A stretch of 57,459 bases of DNA from Myxococcales bacterium (GCA_035508175.1 DATJNL010000021.1:1-57459), one strand, 5' to 3'; positions 4,321 through 25,592 are shown, numbered from the stretch's first letter. Notes: generated by a model not told the origin, from the sequence alone. A program made the numbers and translations.

Positions 4321-5183
4321 GCCGCGGCTCCGCCGACATCAAGGGCGCCGCCGAGATCGAGCTCATGCGGCGGTCCGGCCGCATCGTCTGGGAGATCCTC
4401 CAGGAGATGGCCGGCATGGCCCGCCCCGGCGTCTCCACCTTCGAGATCGACCGCGTGGCCGAGCGGCTCATCCACGAGAAGGGCGCGAAGCCGGCCTTCA
4501 AGGGCTACAAGGGCTTCCCCGCCTGCGTCTGCATCTCCATCAACGAGGAGGTCGTCCACGGCATCCCCAGCAAGAAGCGGCTGCTGCGCGACGGCGACCT
4601 GCTCTCGCTGGACTTCGGCGTGGTGTGCGAGGGCTGGTACGGCGATTCGGCCGTCACCGTGCCGGTGGGCCGCGTGGACGCGCAGTCGCAGAAGCTCATC
4701 GACGTCACCCGCGCCGCCATGCACGCGGGCATCGCCGCCATCAAGCCCGGCGCGCGCCTCCACGACATCGGCCACGCGGTGCAGGCGCTCGTGGAGAAGA
4801 ATGGCTTCTCGATCGTGCGCGACTTCGTGGGCCACGGCATCGGCCGCCACCTCCACGAGGATCCGCAGGTGCCGAACTACGGCGACGCCGGCACGGGCCC
4901 GCGCCTGAGGCCCGGCATGGTGCTCGCCATCGAGCCCATGGTGAACGCGGGCAGCCCCGACGTGCTGCTCCTCGAGGACGGCTGGACCGCGGTCACCGCC
5001 GACGGCCAGCGCTCCGCGCACTTCGAGCACACCGTGGCCGTCACCGAGACGGGCGCCTCCATCCTGACCCTCCCCGAGGGGGTGGCGGCGGGCCTGGAGG
5101 GCCAGCAGGCGGCCGAGGTTGCAAGCGCCGACGCAGCATGTTATATGCCCCGGCTCCCCAACGCCGTGGTAGCGAAAGGGTAG
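4317..5183 (+). CDS. map: Type I methionine aminopeptidase with a ~40-aa C-terminal tail
   Basis: The internal ATG at 4317 overlaps the adk stop (ATGA). The product MSRGSADIKGAAEIELMRRSGRIV...FVGHGIG...HFEHTV carries MetAP metal-ligand motifs. The upstream part of track ORF 4059..5183 is the adk shadow frame. Confidence 0.93.
   Translation: MSRGSADIKGAAEIELMRRSGRIVWEILQEMAGMARPGVSTFEIDRVAERLIHEKGAKPAFKGYKGFPACVCISINEEVVHGIPSKKRLLRDGDLLSLDFGVVCEGWYGDSAVTVPVGRVDAQSQKLIDVTRAAMHAGIAAIKPGARLHDIGHAVQALVEKNGFSIVRDFVGHGIGRHLHEDPQVPNYGDAGTGPRLRPGMVLAIEPMVNAGSPDVLLLEDGWTAVTADGQRSAHFEHTVAVTETGASILTLPEGVAAGLEGQQAAEVASADAACYMPRLPNAVVAKG
5119..5147 (+). promoter_or_regulatory. Candidate sigma70-type promoter for the alpha operon, embedded in the map 3' end
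   Basis: TTGCAA (5119-5124), a 16-17 nt spacer, then TTATAT/TATATG (5141-5147). This is an isolated AT-rich motif in GC-rich coding DNA about 40 nt upstream of rpmJ. Confidence 0.3.
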
Positions 5184-7977: not shown

Positions 7978-8544
7978 ATGCGGCACCAGAACATGGGGCG
8001 AAGGCTCGGTCGGACCACCGAGCACCGGCACGCGCTGCTCGGCAACCTCGTCGCGGCGCTGATTCACCACGAGCGGATCCAGACCACGCTGCCCAAGGCC
8101 AAGGAGGCCCGGCGGCTGGCGGAGAAGATGATCACGCTGGCGAAGCGGGCCGGGCTGCACCACCGCCGCCTGGCGGGCCGGACGCTCCGCGACGGCGACG
8201 CTCTCAGCAAGCTCTTCGCCACGCTGGGCCCGCGCTTCGCAAGCCGCGCGGGCGGTTACACGCGCATCGTGCGGCTGGGGCACCGGCTGGGCGACGCGGC
8301 GCCGATGGCGATCCTCGAGCTGGTGGAGCGCTCCCCGAAGGAGACCCCGGAGACCGGCGCCAAGACGGCGAAGCCCGCGAAGGGCGAGGCCGCCAAGGCG
8401 AAGTCCACCGGCAAGGCCGAAGCCAAGCCCGAGCCCAAGAAGAAGGCCGCCGCGAAGGCGTCGGCCAAGGAAGACAAGGCCGAGGGCGAGAAGAAGGCCG
8501 AGAAGAAGCCCGCGGCCAAGAAGGCGCCGGCGAAGAAGAAGTAA
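7978..8544 (+). CDS. rplQ: 50S ribosomal protein L17 with a ~70-aa Lys/Ala/Glu-rich C-terminal tail
   Basis: The ATG at 7978 lies inside track ORF 6853..8544. The product [37 protein letters not shown] is L17. The tail reads [34 protein letters not shown]...KKAPAKKK. Confidence 0.93.
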
Positions 8545-8600
8545 CCGGTCGGTCCGGTCTCGAACGGTCTGCGGCCCGCAGCGGCGAGCGTCGGGGTCTT

Positions 8601-9608
8601 CTGGCGCGCGTCGAAAGCTTCATGGAAGACGCGCTGGGGCCCGTCGCGCGCGTGCCATGGGCTCTGGCGCAGGCCGTGGGTCTTGGAGCGCGCGTTCGCG
8701 AGCCTCCAGCGCACGGCGAAGGCCTTCCATCGCGGGGGAGAGAGCTCGTTGGACGGGCGATGGAGCTCGTTGAACGAGCCGTCATCGGTCCAGCGCACGG
8801 CGAAGGAGGCCTGGCGCGCGTCGAAGGACGTCTGGCGCAGGTCGGGAAGGCTCTTGAACGCGCGCGAAGGCCCCCAGCGCGTGCGTGAGCCCTTCAAGCA
8901 GGTGCGGGAAATCCTCCAGCGCGTGAGCGAAGCCTTCCAGCGCGTGCGCAAGGGCCTCCAACACATGCGCAATGGCTTCTCCAGCCTGCGCAATGAACGT
9001 TTGCGCGCGTTCGACGAACCCTGGCGCGGGCGCGGGAACCTCCAGCCTCTCGCGTGGAGGGTCTGGCGCGTGCTCGCCGGGTTCTAGAACGCGCTCGCGG
9101 CTTCGTTGGAGACGCCCGCGGCCTTCTGGAACCCGCGCAAGGTCTTCCAGCGCCTGCTCGACGACCTCTGGAACGTGGGCTGGAGGCCCTGGCGCACGCG
9201 CGCGAAGACATTGAACGCGCGCAAACGGTTCGAGCGCGCGTCGTGGAGGCCGTTGCGCACGTCGTGGAGGCGTTTGCACGCGCGCTCGAAGCCTTCGCAC
9301 ACGTCGGGGAAGACCTTGCACGCGTCGTGGAGGCCTTCGCACGTGCGCTGGAAGCCTTCGCGCACGTCGTGGAAGACATTGCGCGTGTCGTGGAGGCGTT
9401 TGCACGCGTGCTGGAAGCCTTCATGCACGTCGTGGAAGACCTCGCACGCCTCGTGGAAGCGTTTGCGCGCGTGCTGGAAGCCTTCATGCACGTCGTGGAA
9501 GACATTGCACGCGTCGTGGAAGCCTTCGCGCGCCTTCTGGGCGCGATCGTACGAGCGCGAGAGCCGCTGGCACGCAGCCTGGAAGGCTTCGGGCGTCGCG
9601 GAGACCCG
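8601..9608. repeat. Degenerate tandem array of about 48 units of exactly 21 nt, with a 63-nt super-period in the 3' third
   Basis: Hand segmentation from 8601 in steps of 21 nt stays in register to 9608. Units 9399/9462 differ by 1 nt and units 9420/9483 are identical. The units contain 10-bp palindromes (GCACGCGTGC, CGCACGTGCG, GAAGGCCTTC). Confidence 0.85.
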
Positions 9609-9779
9609 CGCGGGGGCTCGCAACGCAGCACCCAGGACCCTCGCGACCTCGATCGACCCGGCCGCGGGGGGAGCCCACGCGCGGTTGACCTCGATTGGCC
9701 CGCCCACGAGTGGACTCAAGGGGTTGGCGACCTCGACGCACCCGCTGGTGGCAGGACTCAGCGCGCTGGTGACCTCCAC
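9084..9779 (-). CDS. Candidate heptad-repeat protein rich in His/Cys/Phe (FHDVHEG-FQHACKR-LHDTRNV units); the coding status is unresolved
   Basis: It has a GTG start. Wobble GC is about 86% over 42 hand-counted codons, tied with the + frame that shares the same wobble positions, and its codons are typical of high-GC genomes. There is no convincing RBS, and the ORF lies entirely inside the repeat tract. Confidence 0.3.
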   Translation of the reverse strand: MEVTSALSPATSGCVEVANPLSPLVGGPIEVNRAWAPPAAGSIEVARVLGAALRAPARVSATPEAFQAACQRLSRSYDRAQKAREGFHDACNVFHDVHEGFQHARKRFHEACEVFHDVHEGFQHACKRLHDTRNVFHDVREGFQRTCEGLHDACKVFPDVCEGFERACKRLHDVRNGLHDARSNRLRAFNVFARVRQGLQPTFQRSSSRRWKTLRGFQKAAGVSNEAASAF

Positions 9780-9938
9780 GGACCGGGCCGTGACAGCCCC
9801 TAACTCGTTGGAAGCACTTGCGAACCCGGCCGCGAAGGGGCACGAACCGCTGGCGACCTGGACGGACGCGGTCGTTCCCTGACTCGACGGGCCCGTGAGC
9901 TGCCCTGACCCGGCGGTGGCCCGACCAAAGCCGACCGC
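9645..9938. repeat. Seven units of exactly 42 nt, contiguous with the 21-nt array
   Basis: The motif GACCTCGA/GACCTCCA/GACCTGGA recurs at 9645, 9687, 9729, 9771 and 9855, with degenerate copies at 9813 and 9897. All are spaced 42 nt or a multiple of it. Confidence 0.75.
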
Positions 9939-9962
9939 GGGGCTCCCGCGGGTGGCCGTGGC

Positions 9963-11252
9963 CTACGGGGCCGCGGGCGTGGCCGGCGCGAGCTCGGTGA
10001 ACTGCGCGCCGAGCCGGTCCGCGATGCGCGCGCGCTGCTCGAGGAGAAAGGCGATGCGGCGCTGCAGCCTCGCCACTACCGCGGCGTCCGGGATCTTCGC
10101 CGCCAGCGCCGTCGCGAGCTCGCCTTGCGCCCGCGCCACCGTGGCGTCGATGGGCACCACGTGGATCTGCGTGGGCAGCTTCGCGTTCCGCTGCCGCGCG
10201 AGCGCGTTGTTGTCGGTCCACAGCGGCACCAGCGTCACCGGCCCGAGCTCCACGCGCGGCGGGCCCGCCGCGTACTGCCGCTTCTCGAGCGTCACCTCCA
10301 GCAGCACGCCGTCGCGCGTGTCGGCCTGGCTGTCCGGGTTCACGCCGGGCGCGTAGAGCCGGCTCTGATTCGAGATGAAGTTGCCGAGCGAGTACGCCAC
10401 GAGCGCCACGCGGCCGTCCGCCGCCGGGTACAGCTCGAGCGGCTGCAGCACGTGCGGGTGGCTCCCGAGGATCAGGCCGGCGCCCGCGTCCACCAGCGCG
10501 TGCGCGAGCTCCGCCTCGCCGGGGTCGGGCACCTTCGCGTACTCGGTGCCCCAGTGGATCGACACGATCACGAAGTCGGCCTGCTTGCGCGCGGCGGCGA
10601 TCGCGGCCGTCATCTCCGCCGGGTCCGCCGGGGCGACCCGCGGCGCCTTCGGATCGTCCACGTCGAGGTTCTGGTTGAAGCGCGCGGTGAAGCCGATGAA
10701 CGCGAGCCGGATGCCGTGCACCTCGAGGTACACCACGCGCTCCGCCTCGGCCCGGTCGCGCCCCGCGCCCACTTCCTGCAGCCCCGCCGCCAGCACGTTG
10801 GCCACCGTCTCGGCCACGCCCGCGCGCCCCTGGTCGAAGGCGTGGTTGTTCGCGCACGAGACCACGCCGAAGCCCGCGGCCTTCACCGCGGCGAGCACGA
10901 TGGGCGGCGCGTTGAACACGAACGGCTTCGTGCCGCGCCCGGCCTTCGGCGCCACCGGGAACTCGAGGTTCCCGAAGGCCAGGTCCACGCGGTGCAGCTC
11001 GGGCGCGACCGCGCTGAACAGCCCGTCGAAGCCGTCGTGGTTGGTGGACGCCCCCTTCACGCGCACGTCCTGCGCCGCCGCGGCGTCCTTCACCGCCTCG
11101 TGCATCATCACGTCGCCGGTGGCGGCCAGCGTGAGCGAGGCCAGGACCTTCGGAGCGGGCGCACCCGGCGCGAGCGGTGGCAGCGTGGCGGCGCATCGGC
11201 AAGGGAGGGCAGGGGGCGCCGAGAGGAACAGGGCCAGCAGCGCGGCGAGCAT
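9963..11252 (-). CDS. CapA-family (PGA_cap) metallophosphatase-like protein, secreted
   Basis: The 429-aa ORF has a signal-like N-terminus and the motifs ATGDVMMH, SCANNHAFDQG and SIHWGTEY...GSHPHV, typical of poly-gamma-glutamate CapA-type proteins. Confidence 0.8.
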   Translation of the reverse strand: MLAALLALFLSAPPALPCRCAATLPPLAPGAPAPKVLASLTLAATGDVMMHEAVKDAAAAQDVRVKGASTNHDGFDGLFSAVAPELHRVDLAFGNLEFPVAPKAGRGTKPFVFNAPPIVLAAVKAAGFGVVSCANNHAFDQGRAGVAETVANVLAAGLQEVGAGRDRAEAERVVYLEVHGIRLAFIGFTARFNQNLDVDDPKAPRVAPADPAEMTAAIAAARKQADFVIVSIHWGTEYAKVPDPGEAELAHALVDAGAGLILGSHPHVLQPLELYPAADGRVALVAYSLGNFISNQSRLYAPGVNPDSQADTRDGVLLEVTLEKRQYAAGPPRVELGPVTLVPLWTDNNALARQRNAKLPTQIHVVPIDATVARAQGELATALAAKIPDAAVVARLQRRIAFLLEQRARIADRLGAQFTELAPATPAAP

Positions 11253-14813: not shown

Positions 14814-15362
14814 TCAGGGCAGGGCGAGGGTGCAATAGACGGTCGGAGGACCTGCGTCTCCGTACGGCAGCGTCTCGGCACAGCGGTAGCAAACGAGATC
14901 GCCGAGTGACCCCGCGTCGAAGCCGACGAGGCCGGTCGCCGGCGGAGCTTGCGAGGTGAAATAGGGCGCGCAGTCGCAGATGTCCCCCAGCGTGCACCCG
15001 TCCGGAACGGCGCGGCACGCACCCGGGTAGACGCCCGAATGTTCCTCGCTGGTCGCGAAGTACTCGCAGAGCTCGGCGGAGGGGCAAGCGAGGCACGGCG
15101 CCACGGTTTCCCCGCCGGCGTCGTCGACGTAGAGGCACTGGACCGGGCTACTGCAAGGCAGCAGGCCGGCGTCTCCACCGCTCGGGACGAACCAGCCAGT
15201 GCCAGCGTCCGGGAGCAGTACTCCGAAGCCGCCGGCATCCACGGAGCCGGGACCTACGGCCGCGGGGAGGTTCTCCGGCGCAAGCGAGTTGGGCGAGCAC
15301 GTGGTCAACAGGGGCAGAAAGCACGTCAGGGTGCCTAGCTTCCTACGAGCCACAAGCGGCAT
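14814..15362 (-). CDS. Cys-rich lipoprotein, function unknown
   Basis: The 182-aa ORF has the lipobox PLLTTC, 14 further Cys residues and good high-GC codon usage. Confidence 0.75.
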   Translation of the reverse strand: MPLVARRKLGTLTCFLPLLTTCSPNSLAPENLPAAVGPGSVDAGGFGVLLPDAGTGWFVPSGGDAGLLPCSSPVQCLYVDDAGGETVAPCLACPSAELCEYFATSEEHSGVYPGACRAVPDGCTLGDICDCAPYFTSQAPPATGLVGFDAGSLGDLVCYRCAETLPYGDAGPPTVYCTLALP

Positions 15363-15981
15363 TAGAACAAACGCCAGACGGGCAGGCTACCCCGCACCCG
15401 CCGCAGTTGGTGCGAGTTCCTATCGAAGAAGCGGGGTCACCCCCTTCGAAGGCGAACCAATTCCTCTCGACGAGGCAGTAGTTCTCTTCGAAGAGGAACG
15501 AGCTCCTCTCGCAGAAGCGGCCGTTCCTTTCGAAGAGGAACGAGCTCTTCTCGCAGAGGCGGTCGTTCCTTTCGAAGAGGAACGACCTCTTCTCGCAGAG
15601 GCGGTCGTTCCTTTCGAAAAGGAACGAGCTCTTCTCGCAGAAGGGGTTGTTCCCTTCGAAGATGAACCAGCTCCTCTCGCAAGGGAGGTGGTTCCTTTCG
15701 AAAGGGAACGATCTCTTCTCGCAGAAGCGGTCACTCCTTTCGAAGGGGAGCGATCTCCTTTCGCAGAAGCGGTCACTCCTTTCGAAAAGGAACGAGAGCC
15801 TCGCGCAGAAGCGTTCGTTTCTTTCGCGAGGGACCGACCTGTTCTCCCTCCGAACCGCCTTGCCGACCTTCCTGCACGGGTGCGGTGACCCACCGCAGCC
15901 TCGCATCATCGACCTTCGCTCGCGGGCTGGCGAGCGATCGTCGCCGACGAGCGGAGGACTTCGACGCCTTTGGCCTGACAC
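15343..15981 (-). CDS. Candidate 14-aa-repeat protein (FLFERNDRLCEKRS, about 10 copies) ending in an NCGGCGVACPSGVC motif; coding status uncertain, possibly a gene remnant
   Basis: The repeat part has high GC3 (13 of 14 codons per unit). The C-terminal motif matches the NCGxCGxxC motif of the downstream 661-aa protein. Its 3' end overlaps the next gene by 20 nt. It has no signal peptide, and the + frame that shares its wobble positions is also open. Confidence 0.3.
   Translation of the reverse strand: MSGQRRRSPPLVGDDRSPARERRSMMRGCGGSPHPCRKVGKAVRRENRSVPRERNERFCARLSFLFERSDRFCERRSLPFERSDRFCEKRSFPFERNHLPCERSWFIFEGNNPFCEKSSFLFERNDRLCEKRSFLFERNDRLCEKSSFLFERNGRFCERSSFLFEENYCLVERNWFAFEGGDPASSIGTRTNCGGCGVACPSGVCSNAACGS
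15417..15857. repeat. Array of about 21 units of 21 nt (about 10 units of 42 nt) alternating two palindromic unit types
   Basis: Type X is CGTTCCTTTCGAAGAGGAACG, with 7-bp arms CGTTCCT/AGGAACG around TTCGAAG. Type Y is AGCTCTTCTCGCAGAGGCGGT, with CTTCT-CGC-AGAAG. Boundaries at 15522, 15564, 15606, 15648, 15690, 15732 and 15774 are exactly 42 nt apart. Confidence 0.85.
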
Positions 15982-16046
15982 CGCGCCGAGCCCGCGAGAC
16001 GATCCTCTCGCCGCGCTCCGCGAACCGTGCTAAGCGCTGCGGCCCC

Positions 16047-16460
16047 ATGAGATCCTCGAGAGGGAAGATTGCGGGAGCCGCGCTGTGCCTCCTCTTGGCC
16101 TGCGCCTCCGACCCTTGCAGCGACGGCGCGTCCGCCGCGCAGAACGTCGCCAACTACATCGCGGGCTGCGCCGCCAGCGATCAGGGCTTCTTCGGCGGCT
16201 ACTCGCCCTGCTTCGATCAGAACGCGTGCGAGACGAACTTGAAGTCGTGCTCGCAGGCCGATCGCGCGGTGCTCGAGGCCACGGCGAAGTGCCAGAACGA
16301 GTACGCCGCGAGCAACGCGTGCACGTTCGCGGAGCTGCAAACCTACGACTCCTGCGCGGCCTCGGCGACCACGGCGGCCGACGGGGGGAGCGCTCTCTCG
16401 CCTGCCTGCGCCGAGGCCTTCTCGCAGAACCCTGGCAGCTGCGGGGCCGACGCCGGGTGA
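16047..16460 (+). CDS. Small Cys-rich lipoprotein
   Basis: The internal ATG at 16047 of track ORF 15885..16460 gives MRSSRGKIAGAALCLLLACASDPC, with lipobox LLLAC, and about 11 Cys in the mature part. Confidence 0.7.
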   Translation: MRSSRGKIAGAALCLLLACASDPCSDGASAAQNVANYIAGCAASDQGFFGGYSPCFDQNACETNLKSCSQADRAVLEATAKCQNEYAASNACTFAELQTYDSCAASATTAADGGSALSPACAEAFSQNPGSCGADAG

Positions 16461-25429: not shown

Positions 25430-25444
25430 GAGGGCCGGAATGAA

Positions 25445-25592
25445 GGCCTCCCTCTCCCCTTCAGGGGAGAGGGCAGTGGTGAGGGCCCATCACCAGGCCT
25501 CCCTCTCCCCTTCAGGGGAGAGGGGTACTCCCTTCGCGCCCCTCACCAGGTCTCCCTCTCCCCTTCAGGGGAGAGGGCAGGGGTGAGGGGTA
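25445..25592. repeat. Three REP-like palindromic elements (perfect 10-bp stems) between convergent genes; likely a bidirectional terminator or mRNA stabiliser
   Basis: CCCTCTCCCC-TTCA-GGGGAGAGGG occurs at 25450-25473, 25501-25524 and 25554-25577. The third copy is nested in a longer palindrome, CCCCTCACC...GGTGAGGGG. Confidence 0.8.

Follow-up and report, generated by a model that had tools for sequence, protein, structure and literature searches.

The stretch of 57,459 nucleotides analysed here as a whole (Myxococcales bacterium, GCA_035508175.1, DATJNL010000021.1; hereafter the window) carries, directly behind rplQ, a discrete cassette of about 1 kb built of 21-nt units, which begins at approximately 8560 or 8597 and ends at 9610. 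The cassette is periodic, belongs to a dispersed family, differs in unit number between strains, evolves fast and has a substitution pattern specific to one reading frame. Soil metagenome contigs yielded diverged copies at three further loci, one of them present in two assemblies (L001 and L082) and the others designated L083 and L084. The explanation we favour, to which we give roughly an even chance, is that a fast-evolving plus-strand heptad-repeat open reading frame (ORF), hereafter ORF2, beginning at 9054 or later and ending at 9803, has gone unannotated within a dispersed, strain-variable minisatellite cassette, the 5' half of which has decayed. We infer that ORF2 may be translated, that its product may assemble through a helix and that it may be co-transcribed with the gene upstream.

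A first-pass annotation, made from the DNA alone, had described about 48 units of 21 nt held in one register between 8601 and 9608, and the description held: (9608-8601+1)/21 = 48.0. The 21-nt period is dominant as claimed, with a lag-21 identity of 0.54 in this interval, 0.51-0.56 at lags of 42, 63, 84, 105 and 126 nt, and an all-lag mean of 0.28 (standard deviation 0.07); four control kilobases of the window gave only 0.32-0.38 at lag 21. Tandem Repeats Finder reported 21-nt arrays at 8793-8844, 8862-8993 and 9234-9533, and recovered the 63-nt super-period proposed for the last third as an array at 9235-9520 (4.5 copies, 85 % matches). The finer details were reproduced as well. The units at 9420 and 9483 are identical, a single nucleotide distinguishes those at 9399 and 9462, the palindromes GCACGCGTGC (9402), CGCACGTGCG (9338) and GAAGGCCTTC (8718) are present, and the suggested 2-nt slip is visible in the lags between early and late blocks, which peak at 0 mod 21 (0.427) and again at 2 mod 21 (0.402). 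The tract does follow rplQ, the stop codon of which (8542-8544) lies about 55 nt before the tract start. A weaker 42-nt periodicity continues past 9608 to about 9960, and a G+C-rich, codon-like phase (81-94 % G+C) runs constant and unbroken through 8545-9962. The pile of overlapping ORFs had been attributed to stop-poor units, and five of the six frames are indeed open over the regular array.

The frame-specific pattern was seen against L088, a true ortholog strain (96.5 % identity over 5148 nt). The flanking genes rpoA and rplQ are about 99 % identical between the two, with proportions of synonymous and non-synonymous differences (pS and pN) of 0.029-0.034 and at most 0.002, respectively. The cassette is about 10 % divergent throughout, an evolution approximately 10-fold faster than that of the flanks. 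In the frame of ORF2, called B+, the G+C-rich phase is at codon position 1 (GNN codons), whereas in the A frames it is at position 3. The 48 substitutions in 9057-9531 are distributed 12/10/26 over B+ codon positions 1/2/3; 24 are synonymous, with 14.3 ± 3.1 expected (P = 0.0017) when each change is re-placed on sites of the same base, CpG status and change type, and none creates a stop in B+. The synonymous excess is present in the array (15/33, P = 0.013) and in the non-repetitive N-terminal stretch 9057-9239 (9/15, P = 0.04). Before 9054 the three phases are hit about evenly (14/19/16 in 8597-9087 and 4/8/6 in 8897-9053); in the early arm the synonymous counts of the B+, A+ and B'- frames are not above the null, and the paralogs likewise show no constraint there. 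To the question, raised by the first-pass annotation, of whether substitutions at an orthologous locus respect a single frame, the answer is accordingly divided: they respect B+, and B+ only, in 9057-9531, and no frame in the early part.

The paralogous copies agree with the ortholog. Over 9240-9533 the ratio of non-synonymous to synonymous substitution rates (dN/dS, or omega) of B+ is 0.23-0.31, the lowest among the six frames, and it is 0.23-0.38 overall when paralogs and ortholog are taken together; of the three phases, the G+C-rich one is the best conserved. Among 48 units collected from three copies, comprising 37 distinct DNA sequences, all seven columns at B+ third positions are polymorphic, and columns 7, 8, 14 and 19, which are first or second positions, are invariant. 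Every unit encodes V or L at positions 1-2 and F, I or L at position 5, and EAF is spelled in eight ways by our own count over the listed units. Three CpGs often carry the change that B+ reads as silent or conservative and seldom the partner change on the other side.

The ORF2 product would consist of a helical N-terminal part of about 60 residues, 14-15 heptads of the consensus V-V-E-A-F-A-R / A-L-E-A-F-A-H / V-V-E-D-I-A-R, and a locus-specific tail predicted to be disordered. A single-sequence AlphaFold2 model has one helix over residues 33-182, with predicted local distance difference test (pLDDT) values of 93-98 in the array, and the best sequence match in the PDB is 8qad, a designed six-helix coiled-coil barrel (E = 9e-11). 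A sigma-70 promoter scan found no promoter-like site, and the position of ORF2 downstream of a co-oriented gene fits a cistron without a promoter of its own. The earlier suggestion that the tract encodes a heptad protein is supported for the last ~480 nt alone, where the frame from 9054 combines the synonymous excess, the low omega and the confidently predicted helix; it finds no support in the first ~450 nt, where none of the frames is constrained.

The early part of the cassette is nevertheless built of the same material. Read on the plus strand, approximately 8597-9087 gives the same kind of heptad (F/L-Q/H-R/D-V/A-R/C-x-G) as 9088-9610 read on the minus strand, and an inverted self-match at 8858-9367 (67 % over 533 nt) is centred at 9112.5; because of these two features the tract is regarded as largely an inverted pair of arms. 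Both arms share the order of odd units (RLRAFDE / RLRAFNV, LQPLAWR / LQPTFQR). The unit is itself quasi-palindromic, with GAAG-C-CTTC, a GCG spacer and CACG-T-CGTG, so that direct and inverted registers coexist. The stop codons of the early arm differ among strains and copies; in L082 a TGA lies seven codons after the position equivalent to the TGA at 8994-8996 in the window. The features are collected in Table 1.

Table 1 Features of the cassette and its surroundings in the window
Feature	Position	Strand	Remarks
Spacer, from rplQ stop to start of BLAST homology with other copies	8545..8596		alignments to L001, L082 and L083 all begin at 8595
Early arm, ~22 degenerate 21-nt units, largely inverted relative to late arm	8597..9053		unit table, inverted self-match
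Shadow ORF A+, 134 aa, GC3-rich (G+C-rich at third codon positions)	8683..9087	+	called as a gene in ENA and Logan assemblies (L085, L086)
Large imperfect hairpin of early and late arms, 202 predicted pairs, apex near 9112	8850..9375
In-frame TGA in the plus heptad frame, upstream limit of ORF2	8994..8996	+	kept in window, L088 and L083
ORF2 (frame B+), 249 aa	9054..9803	+	best-supported coding frame
CTAG, with TAG on each strand, within TTCTAGAA; stops A+ and A- together	9084..9087
Shadow ORF A-, 231 aa, F-H-D-V-R-E-G heptads	9084..9779	-	codon-for-codon antisense of ORF2
Regular array, 14.5 units of 21 nt in a 63-nt (three-heptad) super-repeat	9240..9545	+	unit number strain-variable
Locus-specific tail, weak 42-nt periodicity (lag-42 identity 0.53), same G+C phase	9611..9962		no counterpart in other copies

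The ORFs chosen by gene finders behave as shadow ORFs of B+, judged from their substitution patterns; these are the 134-aa plus-strand ORF (A+), the 231-aa minus-strand ORF (A-) and P0001, which is the sole database relative of A- and lies on a contig with unrelated neighbours. As a gene A+ was rejected, since it is interrupted by stops in L082, L083 and L088 and only 6 of its 44 changes against L088 are synonymous, with 10.8 expected. A- was rejected on a dN/dS of 1.4-3.9 among the paralogs and on 8/46 synonymous changes against L088 (12.6 expected), its centre having none that is synonymous and 12 that are non-synonymous; AlphaFold2 gave its product a mean pLDDT of 64.9, below that of ORF2. 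A minus-strand frame rich in S, T and R, which shares the third positions of ORF2, equals B+ numerically in synonymous excess against L088; it was discarded on account of a stop acquired in L088 and of the lack of signal in the part of its ORF below 9054.

The CTAG that ends both A+ and A- is the only one in the region, and is not found at this site in L082 or L083. Across the window CTAG is under-represented, with 20 occurrences seen and about 157 expected from base composition. In-phase CTAGs that form paired stops on both strands occur in L082 and L083 at positions equivalent to 8706/8707, 8970/8971, 9147/9148 and 9579/9580 of the window. The G+C-rich phase of the cassette is also, at 8542-8544 and 9963-9965, the third-codon phase of both flanking genes, rplQ and the gene for a PGA_cap protein, the plus shadow ORF being in frame with the former and the minus shadow ORF with the latter; the shared phase is probably a coincidence, with a chance of 1 in 9.

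The first-pass annotation had left open whether the repeat is a dispersed family or a single locus, and it proved to be dispersed. The whole stretch is shared among the copies and not merely one ORF. The DNA identity of the window cassette is 71-78 % with L001/L082 and L083 and about 65-76 % with L084. Homology starts at the same point in the copies (window 8595), but the alignment of L082 with L083, which covers 1029 nt, runs about 39 nt further to the left, and therefore the cassette may start near 8556. The flanks of the copies are unrelated to one another. The window copy follows rplQ, the L083 copy GatB, the L084 copy a gene of the MutS family and the L082 copy a gene for a small membrane protein; all four copies lie 12-80 nt behind a gene oriented as the plus strand of the window, and the downstream gene is convergent at three of the four. 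L084 has a 63-nt unit in 5.9 copies (92 % matches), in each of which GCACGCGTCGTGGAAG and its reverse complement form an inverted repeat of 16 bp. Within the early portion of this copy, at 4654-4732, there is a perfect 21-nt array of 3.8 copies of GCGCACGTTCAACGAGACAGC, a sequence pattern that indicates recent local expansion.

Length variation accompanies this dispersal. L088 has one extra 21-nt unit, inserted at 9259, and L001 and L082 differ in length by 126 nt. The window is one entire contig, which public collections also contain. Independent assemblies of its organism are 99.7 % (L085), 100 % (L086) and 99.96 % (L089) identical to it; the last ~80 nt of L085, with mismatches clustered at 9283-9361 that look like assembly register shifts, were excluded from the comparison. 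The contigs L085, L086, L088 and L089 all stop inside the regular array, next to the ribosomal protein operon; the array breaks short-read assemblies of the locus. The cassette together with the 52-nt spacer (8545-9531 in the window, 4135-5148 in L088) diverges about three times as much as flanking synonymous sites, the spacer itself being 9.6 % divergent with a 6-nt indel at 8591. Divergence this fast suggests that the repeats drive hypermutation or that paralogous copies act as donors in conversion.

Searches beyond these loci returned little. A profile of the A- ORF found no cassette match in one genome per species from 185,579 species, and viral contigs, phage records and plasmid records contained none either. 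In the nearest genomes the PGA_cap neighbour is only 44 % identical and synteny is absent, and the 57 kb of the window hold no further copy of the unit. Terminal inverted repeats or target-site duplications could not be defined by eye among the copies, the left ends of which are shared, and no ORF contains a transposase domain (Pfam, NCBIfam). The profile of A- ORFs added only L087, a forest-soil contig with a weak and unrelated 21-nt array at 150-480 that reads F-S-D-V-R-E-R around GACGTC, with ...DVRE... on both strands; this array resembles the quasi-palindromic heptad design by analogy and is not homologous to it. A literature search for a myxobacterial 21-bp intergenic repeat found nothing relevant.

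The first-pass annotation had offered hairpins or phased binding sites as the alternative to coding, and the tract does fold far better than shuffled sequence. The hairpin at 8850-9375 has z = -10.3 on the plus strand and -11.1 on the minus strand, and three full copies gave z values of -7.3, -8.0 and -7.3, with differing topologies. In a three-copy alignment the window hairpin keeps 80 % of cells paired, against 30-50 % in slid controls. There is no sign of selection for pairing. Covariation of the hairpin across the three copies is not above that of shuffles; 179 of the 202 pairs are kept in L088, against 177.2 ± 2.8 when the same substitutions are placed at random (P = 0.32); and palindrome positions within units pair exactly as often as independent columns predict. 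With neither covariation nor preferential preservation, the giant hairpin was rejected as a selected structure, and we regard self-complementarity as a property of the unit and of an inverted duplication, not as one shown to be selected. An intrinsic terminator scan of the tract found none, nor a terminator-like U-tract.

Several observations weigh against ORF2 as a gene. Its codon usage is alien to that of the neighbouring genes (GAA 74 % vs 8 %, GCA 30 % vs 3 %, ATT 100 % vs 2 %), and its GC3 is about 0.73, compared with 0.95-0.98 in those genes; the frame looks non-native because the G+C-rich phase falls at its codon position 1. The only canonical start before the array, GTG at 9054, is GTC in L088, and no Shine-Dalgarno sequence is evident. 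The stop is not conserved, since homology between the copies ends ahead of it: the ORF ends 190 nt into unique flank in the window and 40 nt in L082, and does not end within the L083 locus. In the window it crosses the tail at 9611-9962 as far as the stop codon at 9801-9803, and the tail read in the ORF2 frame consists of 14-aa D-L-D-x-P repeats, predicted to be disordered. The same frame in L084 gives VVEDIAR-ALMLPRR-ALTPFAR, with two prolines per 21 residues, and the 63-nt unit of that copy carries the core motif in both orientations, which together point to a motif at the level of DNA. In the array pN is 0.08, about as much as the unconstrained early arm diverges in total (0.10), and pS, at 0.21, is above that total; part of the synonymous excess could therefore come from reshuffled old unit variants. 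The RNA would be exceptionally structured, at the z values of -7 to -11 given above. Among 5.8 billion predicted proteins ORF2 had no homolog at E <= 0.01, and its 196 matches in a library of 1.84 billion representatives were all unrelated heptad tandem repeats or long coiled coils.

Many of these points would be expected of a non-coding intergenic minisatellite, selfish or structural at the DNA or RNA level, which consists of quasi-palindromic units, lands behind genes, grows or shrinks by slippage and is at most a structured 3' element, such as a terminator, an insulator between convergent genes or a stabiliser of mRNA 3' ends; its codon pattern would be inherited or would come from reshuffled unit variants. 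This is the most serious of the alternatives, if less probable than a coding ORF2. It accounts for the position of the copies 12-80 nt behind genes and mostly between convergent ones, for the extreme folding of every copy, for the core motif in both orientations in L084, for unconserved starts and stops and alien codon usage, for variable unit number with a divergence about three times that of flanking synonymous sites, and for the retention in all copies of an early 450 nt that carries no coding signal; two more palindrome-bearing tandem arrays lie in intergenic DNA of the same window. It does not predict the frame-specific synonymous excess in a true ortholog, which extends to the non-repetitive 9057-9239. 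Nor is it helped by the palindromes, whose positions do not covary beyond independence, or by the hairpin, which lacks covariation among copies, is preserved in the ortholog at the random level and varies in pairing topology; U-tract and Rfam match are missing too. A phased array of ~48 sites, one for a DNA-binding protein at every two helical turns, with a centromere-like or nucleoid-organising role and a site of approximately GCRCGYGTCGTGGAAG, would likewise explain a period of exactly 21 bp without net indels across 1 kb, as well as the dyad symmetry of the units and the presence of the core in both orientations in L084, and the most conserved columns do form a contiguous core, GTCGTGGAAG, plus T.GC.C. 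We consider it improbable, however, since no candidate binding protein or partition gene adjoins any copy, the variable columns track codon third positions and not the edges of a site, and the early units are too degenerate for one common site.

Two further readings keep the tract coding and draw the gene differently. The whole kilobase could be a single plus-strand heptad gene for a coiled coil of ~340-400 aa, either read through the TGA in the middle of the element or a pseudogene recently inactivated by it. The same plus-frame heptad pattern (hydrophobic-A-R/H/Q-V/A...) does extend through 8601-9545 with one or two stops per copy, all of them TGA, and an ATG block reading A-M-E-L-V-E-R, conserved near the left end of L082, L083 and L084, is found again in the window at 8761. 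However, with 88 % G or C at the first codon base stops are hardly possible and openness is uninformative; neither ortholog nor paralogs show constraint upstream of 9054; and the extra stops are strain-variable, L088 having lost the one at 8886 and gained one near 8907. This reading is marginally less probable even than the binding-site array. The least credible is the arrangement proposed by gene callers, with convergent genes (134 aa on the plus and 231 aa on the minus strand) that end at the one CTAG and encode heptad proteins rich in His, Cys and Asp. In their G+C profile both ORFs are like the genome's genes (GC3 0.84-0.94, GC1 > GC2), they are called in ENA, Logan and JGI assemblies, and P0001 is a called homolog of the minus-strand one. 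The arrangement is largely refuted by the dN/dS of 1.4-3.9, by third positions being the most conserved, by the depletion of synonymous changes in the ortholog (8/46 and 6/44), by the stops that break the plus-strand ORF in L082, L083 and L088, and by the lack of conservation of the CTAG.

According to the explanation centred on ORF2, a single uncultured lineage of Myxococcota would harbour a tandem-repeat cassette of ~1 kb that has spread to four or more intergenic positions, always just behind a co-oriented gene. The 3' half of the cassette (~9054-9545, extended here to the stop at 9803) would be coding on the plus strand, now or until very recently, and (V-V-E-A-F-A-R)n, a strongly hydrophobic heptad, is modelled as one long alpha-helix that could assemble as a coiled-coil bundle. 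Slippage of units would change the number of heptads and with it the length of the protein between strains. The 5' half may be an older, partly inverted and decayed part of the same array that is no longer constrained, and the complementarity of the two halves a by-product of the quasi-palindromic unit (GAAG-C-CTTC, CACG-T-CGTG) and of inverted duplication; the GC3-rich ORFs chosen by gene finders would be shadows of the B+ frame. An extension of this explanation, which we put forward as speculative and rather unlikely, is that the cassette represents a new kind of bacterial mobile minisatellite, ~1 kb long and promoterless. It would insert copies of itself just behind genes and, through transcription together with them, supply a hypermutable coiled-coil peptide of variable length, self-complementarity of the DNA (for spread or expansion) and the heptad constraint acting on the same bases.

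As the first-pass annotation had supposed, the unit belongs to no named family: Pfam, NCBIfam and Rfam scans gave no significant match. With Pfam, NCBIfam, PHROGs and PADLOC all candidate ORFs had only sub-threshold matches of coiled-coil type, and the single Rfam match was at chance level (E = 0.67, with 17 bits where the gathering score is 51). In CRISPR arrays, direct repeats of 23-55 nt alternate with unique spacers about as long as the repeats. A CRISPR array was rejected here, the units being contiguous without spacers and the neighbours being rpoA, rplQ and the PGA_cap protein gene, not cas genes.

Among known elements the cassette resembles MIRU (mycobacterial interspersed repetitive unit) elements, which reportedly consist of tandem units at intergenic loci, at gene ends within or after operons, with a unit length that is a multiple of 3; their copy number is said to vary between strains and their small ORFs to be in phase with neighbouring genes. 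The cassette likewise has tandem units at several intergenic loci at gene ends, a unit length that is a multiple of 3, a strain-variable copy number and small ORFs in phase with the neighbouring genes. As in a variable-number tandem repeat of this type, four loci are occupied and length differs by +21 nt (window vs L088) and by 126 nt (L001 vs L082). The unit is, however, of 21 nt and not of about 46-100 nt, the phylum is another, no relation in sequence is shown, and the cassette comprises ~48 units with an inverted, decayed half and has in one part a protein-coding substitution signature. With REP and BIME elements it shares imperfect dyad symmetry, a position behind genes or between convergent genes and a strong folding potential; but a REP element comprises one or a few units of 20-40 nt and occurs in hundreds of copies, whereas the cassette is one 1 kb array per locus, with no other copy in 57 kb and no sign of selected pairing.

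At the protein level, ORF2 matches heptad coiled-coil proteins in sequence (hydrophobic at a/d/e/g; sc-apCC-6 barrels, ZorA, MCE and tape-measure tails), V-V-E-A-F-A-R combining an E/R pair with five residues that are small or hydrophobic and being predicted to form a single long helix. These matches are compositional and do not reflect homology, and ORF2 lacks a conserved non-repeat domain, a signal sequence and partner genes. Of the properties of a coiled-coil gene, it has the heptad pattern, the predicted continuous helix and the signature of purifying selection, which reshuffling of units may inflate; it does not have a conserved start, stop or ribosome-binding site, nor codon usage typical of the genome. 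The called ORFs resemble the shadow ORFs of high-G+C genomes, in that they are the antisense or shifted frame of a constrained frame and are long because stops are scarce. Usually, however, the shadow has the poorer GC3, whereas here the shadow is typical of the genome and the constrained frame is not, which is why gene finders choose the shadow.

If ORF2 is real, it would represent an orphan, fast-evolving family of coiled-coil genes for which standard gene finders systematically choose the wrong strand, and an example of repeat-borne genes lost or mis-annotated in high-G+C metagenome-assembled genomes; P0001 and the entries for the 134-aa ORF would be artefacts. If non-coding, the cassette would be a large minisatellite, dispersed and variable between strains, that could serve to mark strains, and a case in which inherited codon structure mimics selection. 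To our knowledge no such large dispersed minisatellite has been described in this phylum. The assembly breaks at the cassette matter for genome completeness around the ribosomal protein operon.

Other repeats were noted in the window. The C-terminal extension of rplQ (8340-8541), rich in Lys, Ala, Pro and Glu, derives in part from a 51-nt repeat present twice (8419-8520). A 42-nt unit is repeated 8.7 times (82 % matches) at 15462-15826, between divergent genes at 14814-15362 (minus strand) and 15885-16460 (plus strand); each unit has the dyad GTTCCTTTCGAAGAGGAAC, the array is A+T-richer than the genome, and no second copy exists in the rest of the window or in the loci compared with it. At 25444-25589 a 53-nt unit occurs in 2.8 copies, each with a perfect, REP-like hairpin with a 10-bp stem, CCCTCTCCCC-TTCA-GGGGAGAGGG.

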